The notes under the pieces are model-generated. The model saw nothing but the letters and a program-made list of their open reading frames with translations, searched no databases and was not told the DNA's origin. The position numbers and the translations under genes were made by a program. Shown here piece after piece: positions 19,069 to 20,653 of a stretch of DNA of 30,721 nucleotides (positions are counted from its first letter, which is position 1; each line of letters starts with the position of its first letter). The stretch is from the IMG/VR virus record IMGVR_UViG_3300044724_001191, positions 1 through 30,721 of that record. One strand, 5' to 3'. Source of the DNA: a virus. Its lineage: Duplodnaviria > Caudoviricetes.

Positions 19069-19253
19069 ACTTACTCTTAGTTTACTTAGTTACTTACTAA
19101 CTTACTTACTTAGGTACTAAGTTACTTACTTACTAAGTAATATATACTAAGTAATACTAAGTAACCAAATAACTAAGTATCTTACCCCCCTTATATTCCC
19201 CCCTTTCTTAAATCTTGCTTCTAAGGGCTTTTCTCAATGCAAGATGGGTAAGT
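19059..19253. other. Putative replication origin (TTAC/ACTAAGT repeat tract)
   Basis: Largest non-coding region; AT-rich ACTT/TTAC tandem units on the left, ACTAAGTA units on the right, C-runs, and a flanking 10-bp inverted repeat; precedes the replication genes. Confidence 0.55.
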
Positions 19254-19299: not shown

Positions 19300-19728
19300 T
19301 TAAAACAGCTTTTTGATTAGTTGTTCAGCAAACTGTTTTAGGATAACTAAAATGCATAGGATAGCAATCGACCATCCAAGCAACCCCTCCCAGCTCCATT
19401 TTTTCTTTTTAGGTTCGGGAGCAATGGTATTGTGAATCCTTACAGTTTCAATGCGTACCGTATCGCTTGGACACTCCGCACTCACATACACCCTTTCACC
19501 CTCTAGGTACTTTACCTCGACCTTTACTCGGTCTTGATAGATTACCGTGTCCTTCTGAATCGTTAGGGTGTCGTGCAGTATTCTTTCTTGGGTTACTACA
19601 ACCGTGTCCTTTACAACTACACTCTGTTGGATACTTTTCGCACCACCGCATCCACTAACTACCGCAAGAATCGCAATCGGGATTATCAATAGAGCAAGTC
19701 GGGTTAATGGGAATTTCTTCCAAGTCAT
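19300..19728 (-). CDS. Putative unimolecular spanin (u-spanin)
   Basis: Lipoprotein signal MTWKKF...AVVSG-C, beta-rich middle, C-terminal transmembrane helix; follows the endolysin. Confidence 0.75.
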   Translation of the reverse strand: MTWKKFPLTRLALLIIPIAILAVVSGCGGAKSIQQSVVVKDTVVVTQERILHDTLTIQKDTVIYQDRVKVEVKYLEGERVYVSAECPSDTVRIETVRIHNTIAPEPKKKKWSWEGLLGWSIAILCILVILKQFAEQLIKKLF

Positions 19729-19768
19729 TGAGCCAATCATCAAAAGGGGAGGTATTTGGTTCGTCCAT
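19655..19768 (-). CDS. Overprinted 37-aa acidic CxxC peptide resembling the RNR alpha C-terminal tail, not in the ORF track
   Basis: MDEPNTSPFDDWLNDLEEIPINPTCSIDNPDCDSCGS; ATG preceded by AAAAAAATAA. Confidence 0.6.
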   Translation of the reverse strand: MDEPNTSPFDDWLNDLEEIPINPTCSIDNPDCDSCGS

Positions 19769-20162
19769 TTATTTTTTTTGCTTTTAAAACTTGTTTGCGG
19801 TGTCTTGGGGAGTAGGAAACGTGAACCCAGCTTGGAGCATCATCTGTGCCAAACTCCCAAATCAGTTGGTCAAAGTCGGTATTGTCCTTAATCCAATTAA
19901 AAAGAACGTCATTGCCTCCCTTGAACTTTAGGTCAGCAGCTTGAGCAAAACAATGTTGACTGCTTGAACTTCCCCCAATAGCCTTGTTGACTTCGGGTGA
20001 GCGATAGCCACTTGTTACTTGAATAGCTCCTAAAGCATCTCTTGCGGGTTGTAAGACATTATCTGCAAGGGCTTGTAGGTTTTCCTTCAAATGGTCGGGA
20101 AGTGCGTTAGGAAGCCCCGTATTCGTTTTTGTCAGTTCCGCTAAAGTGAAGTTCTTTGTCAT
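19740..20162 (-). CDS. Endolysin, peptidase M15A family
   Basis: VTSGYRS...SQH...AAD...WVHVS zinc-binding motif. Confidence 0.9.
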   Translation of the reverse strand: MTKNFTLAELTKTNTGLPNALPDHLKENLQALADNVLQPARDALGAIQVTSGYRSPEVNKAIGGSSSSQHCFAQAADLKFKGGNDVLFNWIKDNTDFDQLIWEFGTDDAPSWVHVSYSPRHRKQVLKAKKINGRTKYLPF

Positions 20163-20287
20163 CGGCCTTGCCCCTTGTAGGGTTTCTTGTAGCTTTTGCT
20201 TTTCTTGTTGGAGCTTTCTTGCTTGGAGTGTTTTCTTCGTTTCTTGCTCTTACTGATGTAAGAGGTAGCCGTTTGCATTTTAGCCAC
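20159..20287 (-). CDS. Very basic small protein (42 aa), not in the ORF track
   Basis: MAKMQTATSYISKSKKRRKHSKQESSNKKSKSYKKPYKGQGR; ATGA-coupled to the endolysin. Confidence 0.7.
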   Translation of the reverse strand: MAKMQTATSYISKSKKRRKHSKQESSNKKSKSYKKPYKGQGR

Positions 20288-20438
20288 GATGATTCTTTTT
20301 AAGTTCTACAATCTTGAAAACGGTGTAGACGATAGAAGCCACCAACAAAACAATTTTGAGGACAGCCTCCACATCGGAAAAGGATACTGCCATTGAACCG
20401 CCATTGACAATAGCTAACTTGACATCTTCTGTTTTCAT
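20280..20438 (-). CDS. Putative holin/antiholin (52 aa), not in the ORF track
   Basis: MKTEDVKLAIVNGGSMAVSFSDVEAVLKIVLLVASIVYTVFKIVELKKNHRG; transmembrane segment and basic tail; ATGA-coupled. Confidence 0.65.
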   Translation of the reverse strand: MKTEDVKLAIVNGGSMAVSFSDVEAVLKIVLLVASIVYTVFKIVELKKNHRG

Positions 20439-20653
20439 TTCTTTGCGAACTTATCCAATGAGGTAAAACCAAAGCAACCAAGAGTCAATACCAAAACGGC
20501 ATTAACAAGGCCATCGCTTGGGGCGATGTCTTGGTGCGTGAACGAATTGGCTACCATAGTACCCAACAAAACGATAGAGCCAAGCAAAGCAATGAAACGC
20601 TTACTGCTCACCTCATCCCCTACGGATAGGAGTTTAGTTATCCAAGTTTTCAT
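20435..20653 (-). CDS. Putative holin (two transmembrane segments)
   Basis: SSKRFIALLG...; two hydrophobic helices and a basic C-terminus; upstream of the endolysin. Confidence 0.7.
   Translation of the reverse strand: MKTWITKLLSVGDEVSSKRFIALLGSIVLLGTMVANSFTHQDIAPSDGLVNAVLVLTLGCFGFTSLDKFAKK

Follow-up and report, generated by a model that had tools for sequence, protein, structure and literature searches.

A phage gene overprinted on a lysis cassette encodes a putative free copy of the ribonucleotide reductase cysteine tail

Can a phage gene consist of little more than the flexible tail of an enzyme that the phage itself does not make? The locus that raises this question lies in IMG/VR record IMGVR_UViG_3300044724_001191, a 30.7-kb phage record that is about 95% complete; the whole stretch of 30,721 nucleotides that was analysed is referred to here as the window. 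On its minus strand, a small open reading frame (ORF) of 37 codons crosses the end of an endolysin gene and the signal-peptide region of a spanin-like gene in the third reading frame, and a first-pass annotation had proposed that its product resembles the redox tail of the ribonucleotide reductase (RNR) α subunit. We found that this ORF has the properties of a conserved gene, that its product matches the tail of the RNR large subunit NrdA, and that related free-standing tails are encoded by other phages and by Flavobacteriales chromosomes. Our tentative reading is that the peptide would serve as a spare tail for the RNR of the host.

The overprinted gene and its match to the NrdA tail

The small ORF, which we describe as an overprinted gene for a free NrdA tail (positions 19655..19768, minus strand), runs from an ATG to a TAG and would encode the 37-residue product MDEPNTSPFDDWLNDLEEIPINPTCSIDNPDCDSCGS. 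It overlaps the last 29 nucleotides of the endolysin gene and the first 89 nucleotides of the spanin-like gene, and the three genes together occupy all three reading frames. Residues C25-S37 (CSIDNPDCDSCGS; 19658..19696, minus strand) form the tail module, in which three cysteines and the terminal GS are invariant in our alignment of the family (A4). Residues 8-17 (PFDDWLNDLE; 19718..19747, minus strand) form an acidic-aromatic segment that is also kept in the family. AlphaFold2 run on A4 placed its sole predicted helix at these residues and coil elsewhere, including residues 18-37 (mean predicted local distance difference test score 68.6), a predicted shape in keeping with a flexible tail preceded by a short helix for docking. 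The product is acidic and is without a hydrophobic N-terminus, signal peptide or lipobox. It has no Pfam domain at an expectation value (E) ≤ 0.01, and so is without the ATP-cone, barrel or active site of the enzyme; neither the Thioredoxin nor the Glutaredoxin Pfam family matched it, and the modelled single short helix is not a thioredoxin fold.

The A-rich leader described in the first-pass annotation is present as well. Adenines make up 14 of the 18 nucleotides directly upstream of the ATG (19769..19786, minus strand), as against a mean of 0.40 over 36 long ORFs, and an in-frame TAA abuts the ATG. This A-richness is not kept in relatives (alignment A1), and promoter and terminator scans returned no more than the shuffle expectation.

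The C-terminal 13 residues of the peptide match those at the very end of the large subunit of class I RNR. When the peptide was compared by phmmer with every sequence in the PDB, the sole match was residues 946-962 (APVPQACSIDNPDCEAC) of the 963-residue ribonucleoside-diphosphate reductase 5im3_A, with E values of 0.4 for the peptide and 0.016 for the 40-sequence profile of A4. The DNA pattern CSIDNP[DE]C[DE]xC was estimated to occur in 2100 stretches of bacterial genomes; among the 120 bacterial matches listed, 119 are found at the extreme 3' end of NrdA-type ORFs that are long or edge-truncated, and the loci with sufficient upstream sequence show the RNR motif KTTYYLR. The final residues vary with the bacterial group, NrdA ending in ...CEACQ in Proteobacteria and several other phyla and in ...CEACGS, ...CGA or ...CSA in Bacteroidota. 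Flavobacteriales NrdA, which is nearly identical to the peptide in this region, ends in ...CSIDNPDDCEACGS, with tails such as ...EEALACSIDNPDDCEACGS and similar. A Flavobacteriales tail in turn matches PDB RNR large subunits at their last residues, namely residues 774-792 of 3hnc_A (792 residues) and the end of 1zyz_A (888 residues), which closes with SKVIACAIDNPEACEMCS plus one residue; we take these two proteins to be human and yeast R1, respectively.

NrdA controls behaved as complete enzymes. The Cyclobacteriaceae protein L135 and the viral proteins L249 and L239 combine an ATP-cone and the RNR barrel (Ribonuc_red_lgC) with the ending ...DNPDCEACGS, at Pfam E ≤ 1e-205 and down to 3.7e-217. 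Family member P0037 shares up to 14 consecutive identical residues with the L135 NrdA, and 6 of 74 family members match the NCBIfam NrdA model (best E 4.6e-4). As described in PMC9669993 and PMC4078304, the native NrdA tail is a disordered arm with a double cysteine that restores the active site to its reduced state and in turn is recharged by thioredoxin or glutaredoxin. The PDB match, the ends of bacterial NrdA proteins and the near-identity to Flavobacteriales tails bear out the resemblance to the redox tail that had been proposed, and we conclude on sequence grounds that the peptide reproduces, as a stand-alone product, the cysteine tail at the C-terminus of class I RNR α in its Bacteroidota form.

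Relatives of the cassette were collected with the spanin, rather than the small ORF, as bait, which yielded 89 loci from viral and metagenome contigs, some of the contigs being present in both collections. The first-pass annotation had named interruption of the frame in homologous lysis cassettes as an observation that would count against it. Instead, the small ORF was intact in 75 of the 77 sources that cover the site (window included), down to about 50% spanin identity. All 75 retain the ORF's own ATG, and the intact ORFs end in ...C[DT]SCGS exactly at the spanin lipobox; 47 distinct DNA versions of the ORF were represented. The two exceptions (L066 and L068) are weak, partial spanin matches in which the spanin start was extrapolated. 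Eight more loci are cut by contig ends, with the tail visible as far as the sequence reaches, and five begin downstream of the site. At loci with another gene upstream (for example L006, L017, L038, L082, L085 and L088), the ORF has 32 residues and its own ATG just before S/T-D-F-E-x-W. A blastn search of the cassette against GenBank phages gave no match.

The question of which frame is conserved, a check suggested in the first-pass annotation, was answered in favour of the small frame by codon-phase entropy and by the ratio of nonsynonymous to synonymous changes (dN/dS). Summed column entropy in the small frame was 19.4, 13.9 and 32.6 for the three codon positions. Variation in the spanin frame peaked at the second codon position over the overlapping residues 1-29 (0.33/0.91/0.60), whereas the non-overlapping residues 30-147 followed the ordinary pattern (0.73/0.40/1.17); the phase switches at the stop of the small ORF. 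We estimated dN/dS by a crude parsimony count on a tree of 45 distinct sequences made from the non-overlapping part of the spanin gene. With the proviso that such values are approximate for kindred sequences in a doubly coding region, dN/dS over the core F9-S37 was 0.30 in the small frame, 1.28 in the spanin frame and 4.07 in the third frame, and the corresponding values over the tail C25-S37 were 0.12, 2.65 and 3.45. The first ten codons gave a different result, the endolysin frame being better kept (0.49, versus 0.71 for the small frame), so that residues 2-8 look like a leader imposed by the endolysin end. In one relative, TGC TCT has become TGT AGT, leaving Cys-Ser unchanged in the small frame and converting Ala-Leu to Val-Val in the spanin.

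Openness of the frame was rejected as evidence because synonymous shuffling of the spanin codons left the small frame open in 60% of trials (37 sequences were used; 10 whose inferred spanin frame held a stop were skipped). The window itself holds 111 ATG-initiated ORFs of at least 37 residues in six frames, 52 of them with 37-59 residues. The three-cysteine pattern was kept in only 3.3% of the shuffles, and the motif C-x(6,7)-C-x2-CGS-stop has a single occurrence in the six-frame translation of the window. The ORF exceeds chance in its conservation, in its codon-phase pattern and in its match to RNR tails, and by these sequence criteria it is a real conserved gene under purifying selection.

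Free tail proteins in phages and Flavobacteriales

Searching 1.84 billion representatives with the A4 profile (E ≤ 1e-3) returned 94 proteins. Ninety of these clusters are 32-103 residues long, and the match reaches the C-terminus in 87 of the 90; the four long proteins match the profile only in its N-terminal part. The family consensus is F-[DE]-x-[WF]-[LIV]-x-[DE]-L-E...QP..C-[SN]-I-[DE]-N-P-[DE](D)-C-[DE]-x-C-G-S, with all three cysteines invariant and no dead-end variant among the members. The window peptide, the first row of A4, shares both the length range and the end C-x(6,7)-C-x2-C-[GS][SA] of the family, and the motif F-x-x-[WF]-[LIV]-x-[DE]-L, which stands 8-15 residues before the first cysteine in family members, reads FDDWLNDL at residues 9-16 of the peptide.

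The small-protein set has no consistent Pfam family and no PHROG family, the source names of its members are all 'hypothetical protein', and the ESM Atlas returned only unnamed clusters of about 40 residues. A search for longer homologous proteins found one of 155 residues, and when three family members were compared with GenBank phages by tblastn, the only matches were annotated nrdA genes in two records of Acinetobacter phages. Literature searches, judged from titles and abstracts, gave no account of a peptide that is a free RNR tail. Some members carry an additional N-terminal cysteine cluster (CxCx5-6CxC or CxxC...CxxC), which was seen in proteins P0012, P0034, P0075, P0082, P0085 and P0087 and at loci L217, L238, L275, L304, L315 and L369. 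This cluster recalls the zinc finger and cysteine pair of class II RNR C-termini described in PMC5704485 and PMC9669993.

In viral contigs, the pattern DNP[DE]CExCGS-stop was estimated to occur in 320 stretches. The 120 viral matches listed comprise 110 small ORFs, 6 NrdA proteins of 815-820 residues and 4 matches cut by contig ends. Flanking sequence was available at 71 small-ORF loci, where the gene is usually free of overlap. An endolysin of one of two unrelated families (Amidase_2 or Peptidase_M15_3) adjoins it at 28 of the 71, and a lysis-type neighbour is present at at least 42 of these loci, which are not independent of one another; the label 'holin-like' among such neighbours denotes Pfam matches below the cut-off (E 1e-4 and 3e-4). 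A few copies stand beside PhoH or a protein with a DnaA-type helix-turn-helix. A different lipoprotein likewise overlaps the end of the small gene at six loci. Because the small gene is far more widely spread and most of the relatives checked are free-standing, the spanin signal peptide was probably overprinted on an older small gene.

A parallel set of proteins was defined by the end C-x6-C-x2-C-Q (...CE[AS]CQ), the tail type seen in NrdA of sampled Proteobacteria and other non-Bacteroidota. The pattern ending in ...CQ-stop gave 36 viral loci, 23 of NrdA type and 13 of other types, the latter falling into three groups of mini-proteins and a fourth group with 127-161 residues. In two of the mini-protein groups, about 25 residues align to the C-termini of Moraxellaceae and Pseudomonadales NrdA, and the aligned stretch takes in an EDDF motif ahead of the cysteines, which indicates that more than the cysteine motif was copied in this Q-type set. 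Judged from these alignments, the free peptides carry the tail type of the matching NrdA group, such that the end of the peptide matches the type of host. Genes next to the Q-type loci encode DnaB helicase, DUF3127, DNA methylase and, once, a CHAP hydrolase. The proteins of 127-161 residues (viral loci L360, L362, L373 and L386) have no Pfam match and end in ...DEPLGEACRLDNPECESCQ; in these cases the Q-type tail is apparently grafted onto a larger protein. We also considered the N-terminal motif as a copy of the NrdB tail and rejected this idea, as NrdB ends (...GFTFDADF, ...SFDEDF, ...DDAFADLNF) are only loosely alike and the Q-type EDDF motif aligns with the C-terminal region of NrdA instead.

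Stand-alone tails also occur in cellular genomes. One cluster of 40-residue proteins lies on chromosome-sized contigs of Schleiferiaceae and Cryomorphaceae. Eight of 121 sampled Flavobacteriales genomes hold both an NrdA that ends in the tail and a separate small protein with it (E about 1e-18), and 26 further genomes match only at the NrdA end, with one match doubtful; overall, the profile matches NrdA ends in frames of 729-904 residues in 34 of the 121 genomes and in all five phage NrdA records. In four of the eight genomes (L333, L334, L335 and L339), the small gene is upstream of pyrG (CTP synthase) on the same strand and divergent from holA (DNA polymerase III δ). The other four copies lie by TonB-dependent receptor genes, and one of these also adjoins holA. 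When the two proteins were compared directly in seven genomes that carry both, the small protein had the spacing C-x6-C and NrdA had C-x7-C, indicating that the small gene did not arise recently by copying of the resident NrdA gene.

Two further observations concern these genomes. The variant CSIDDP (N-to-D) is found in both NrdA and the small protein of G033 and G092 and only in the small protein of G101 (L337, L335, L338 and L348-L350), a pattern in few and closely related genomes that may be co-variation. A Cryomorphaceae NrdA (L330, G001:C2:140267-144844) has one interrupting TAG, with the tail KIACSIDNPDECIACGS in another frame; both defects probably stem from misassembly of this polished long-read contig.

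Neighbouring lysis genes of the window

The endolysin gene (19740..20162, minus strand) encodes a 140-residue protein of the Peptidase_M15_3 family (Pfam E 1.3e-16; PHROG 894, endolysin, E 1.7e-35). The adjoining gene (19300..19743, minus strand) encodes a 147-residue lipoprotein with a signal peptide, the lipobox VVSGC (Cys32) and a C-terminal hydrophobic anchor, the C-terminus consisting of WEGLLGW and then a hydrophobic stretch. This protein has no Pfam or PHROG match; we infer from its lipoprotein signal, its anchor and its place beside the endolysin that it is a u-spanin. The signal peptide and lipobox, residues 1-32 (19648..19743, minus strand), are the overprinted part according to the translation and alignment A2. 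The sequence CTTTTGATGA at 19738-19747 (minus strand) combines codons 9-10 of the small gene with the stop codon of the endolysin and the start codons of the spanin (TTG ATG, in which ATGA forms a start-stop overlap), and it is invariant across four aligned sequences.

Upstream of the endolysin, two small membrane-protein ORFs (20280..20653, minus strand) are candidate holins by their hydrophobic segments and their position. One has 72 residues with two hydrophobic stretches, the other 52 residues with one, and neither has a family match in Pfam scans. An extremely basic ORF of 42 residues, rich in K, R and S (20159-20287, minus strand), bridges the 52-residue membrane ORF and the endolysin start. 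It is kept in relatives L001 (936-1064) and L003 (948-1076), and its charge is opposite to that of the acidic tail peptide. Short tandem repeats (TTAC x13, CTTAGTTA x8 and ATACTAAGTA x2) occupy positions 19076-19164, in the gap that separates the lysis cassette from the following block of genes, and similar repeats are suggested by translations of relatives L067 and L089.

What a free tail might do

The first-pass annotation had named a boost to host RNR, a block on it, a thioredoxin decoy and redox control during lysis as conceivable roles. We propose, with a probability of roughly 0.4, that the peptide is a diffusible spare tail for the RNR of the host. The 37-residue product would be translated from the overprinted gene and would meet the partners of the native tail, host thioredoxin and the NrdA active site, with the acidic-aromatic helix ahead of the tail acting as a docking element. 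Electrons would then pass from host thioredoxin to the peptide cysteines and, likely in trans, to the active site of host NrdA, and the added shuttle capacity would sustain deoxynucleoside triphosphate (dNTP) synthesis for a phage without RNR, as support and not as inhibition. We favour this proposal because the carriers lack RNR, because all redox cysteines are kept, because the Q-type and cellular copies adjoin replication or nucleotide genes, and because re-reduction can be limiting for class Ia RNR turnover.

The statement in the first-pass annotation that this genome encodes no RNR agrees with our searches, which found no RNR large subunit in the record and no RNR, thioredoxin or glutaredoxin Pfam domain in the 53 window ORFs scanned. 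The RNR large subunit (PF02867) was absent from all 16 phage records with a tail peptide, that is, the window, ten records of the GS-ended type and five of the Q type, 8 of the 16 being at least 90% complete. Conversely, the five phage records with NrdA, all of them fragments, show only NrdA's own tail. This pattern of RNR absence in carriers is only suggestive. Among five long carrier records, glutaredoxin was found in none and thioredoxin above the cut-off in one.

Several points weigh against the spare-tail proposal. The main counter-argument is genomic position, as the GS-type gene is mostly found in lysis cassettes with late genes, which is a poor fit to a replication helper and would be more in line with a late brake on RNR or with a lysis timer linked to redox state. 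Because the native tail is tethered, its local concentration is high, and a free peptide may compete with it rather than help. The lack of RNR may be the base rate of 20-95 kb phages, 8 of the 16 records being less than 90% complete. In addition, the tblastn search of GenBank phages found no cultured phage that carries the small gene, and the dN/dS values are approximate for the reasons given above. A broader version of the proposal, which we regard as somewhat doubtful, is that a stand-alone shuttle arm matched to the host NrdA type rewires the thioredoxin-to-RNR relay in phages and in some streamlined marine Flavobacteriales, with distinct versions for NrdA of the Bacteroidota type (GS end) and for Q-ended NrdA; in lysis cassettes it might report reducing power and so time lysis.

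The position beside late lysis genes would be explained more directly if the peptide were a competitive brake on host RNR. By this logic, which is that of Sml1, the free tail would occupy the docking site or soak up reductant and thereby slow late dNTP synthesis. A close copy of the tail should indeed compete with the native tail, and there is a precedent in which a small disordered protein blocks regeneration of R1, Sml1 acting on the step where the R1 tail regenerates the active site (PMC6382339, citing Zhang 2007). However, none of the 16 carrier records has an RNR of its own, so that a brake would starve the phage's own replication. Moreover, Q-type members lie in replication modules, and every redox cysteine is retained, with no dead-end variant seen. 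We consider this explanation unlikely.

The same genomic position could reflect a redox read-out, or thioredoxin decoy, in which thioredoxin keeps the tail reduced and oxidation frees or activates the holin or endolysin, thus timing lysis. Whether the endolysin belongs to Amidase_2 or to Peptidase_M15_3, the GS-type gene stays between it and a gene for a holin-like protein or a lipoprotein, and the window copy overlaps both of its lysis neighbours. Members outside lysis contexts, namely the cellular copies at pyrG/holA and the Q-type copies by DnaB and methylase genes, do not fit this explanation, and the holin-like label itself covers sub-threshold matches. A read-out of this kind seems to us distinctly improbable.

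Since both neighbouring endolysin families are zinc enzymes, the peptide could instead bind metal, as a zinc chaperone or a cysteine-switch inhibitor for the adjacent endolysin. The three invariant cysteines and the extra N-terminal CxCx5-6CxC cluster of some members would be in keeping with such a role. It would leave unexplained, however, both the residue-for-residue copy of NrdA with its host-type-specific ends and the members that lie outside lysis cassettes, and we hold it to be very unlikely.

Two explanations deserve hardly any weight. That the ORF and its conservation are a functionless by-product of constraints that act on the end of the endolysin and on the signal peptide of the spanin would agree with the frequent openness of the frame in shuffles and with the many short ORFs of the window, but by our comparisons it is already contradicted by the codon-phase pattern, the low dN/dS of the tail, the rarity of the three-cysteine pattern in shuffles and the free-standing homologues without any overlap. 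That the tail is a C-terminal extension of the endolysin, made by a +1 ribosomal slip on the TTTT before the endolysin TGA, would draw on the invariance of CTTTTGATGA, where such a slip enters the small frame; however, this stretch is constrained by three frames anyway, all intact sources have their own ATG, variants with another upstream gene start at it, and most relatives checked are free-standing. A frameshift upstream of the small-ORF ATG was rejected separately, given the in-frame TAA that abuts the ATG.

Several known systems resemble parts of this arrangement. The RNR α tail (NrdA/R1) has the same C-[SGN]-[IVL]-D-[ND]-P-[DE](x)-C-x-x-C at its extreme C-terminus, with three cysteines and the GS end in Bacteroidota, whereas the peptide is a stand-alone product of 32-103 residues with an additional acidic-aromatic helix and without the catalytic domains. 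Closest in concept are yeast regulators of the Sml1 type: Sml1, Hug1 and Spd1 are likewise small and largely disordered, but they are eukaryotic inhibitors without a CxxC tail, and the likeness is conceptual, without shown homology. Rz/Rz1 are embedded, overlapping lysis genes and thus also feature an out-of-frame gene that overlaps a spanin gene in a lysis cassette. Unlike these, the peptide is not a spanin subunit, has no export signal, and is overlapped only by the spanin signal peptide and the last endolysin codons. Phage thioredoxins and glutaredoxins such as T4 NrdC and NrdH feed electrons to RNR, and are therefore phage-encoded parts of the same supply; they have a thioredoxin fold and act upstream of the tail, whereas the peptide copies the tail itself in carriers that, as sampled, have no RNR and rarely thioredoxin. 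Finally, synthetic and antiviral peptidomimetics of the RNR β C-terminus block α-β association, so that a free copy of an RNR subunit tail can act on the enzyme. Those molecules are man-made and copy β, and the β tails seen here (...FTFDADF, ...FDEDF) are only loosely like the N-terminal motif of the peptide.

As the lysis cassette of the window illustrates, conserved overprinted genes can lie concealed in signal-peptide regions, where gene callers and annotators miss them. Should the peptide act on RNR, it would be, as far as we could find, the first example in nature of a gene for only the flexible tail of an enzyme acting in trans on that enzyme, and it would offer RNR enzymology a natural test of a tail that works as a separate molecule. 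It would also give phages a cheap handle on the rate-limiting step of DNA-precursor supply, at a price of 37 codons and, in this phage, at no cost in genome length. In the abundant marine Flavobacteriales, the chromosomal copies would then represent an unrecognised regulator of RNR.

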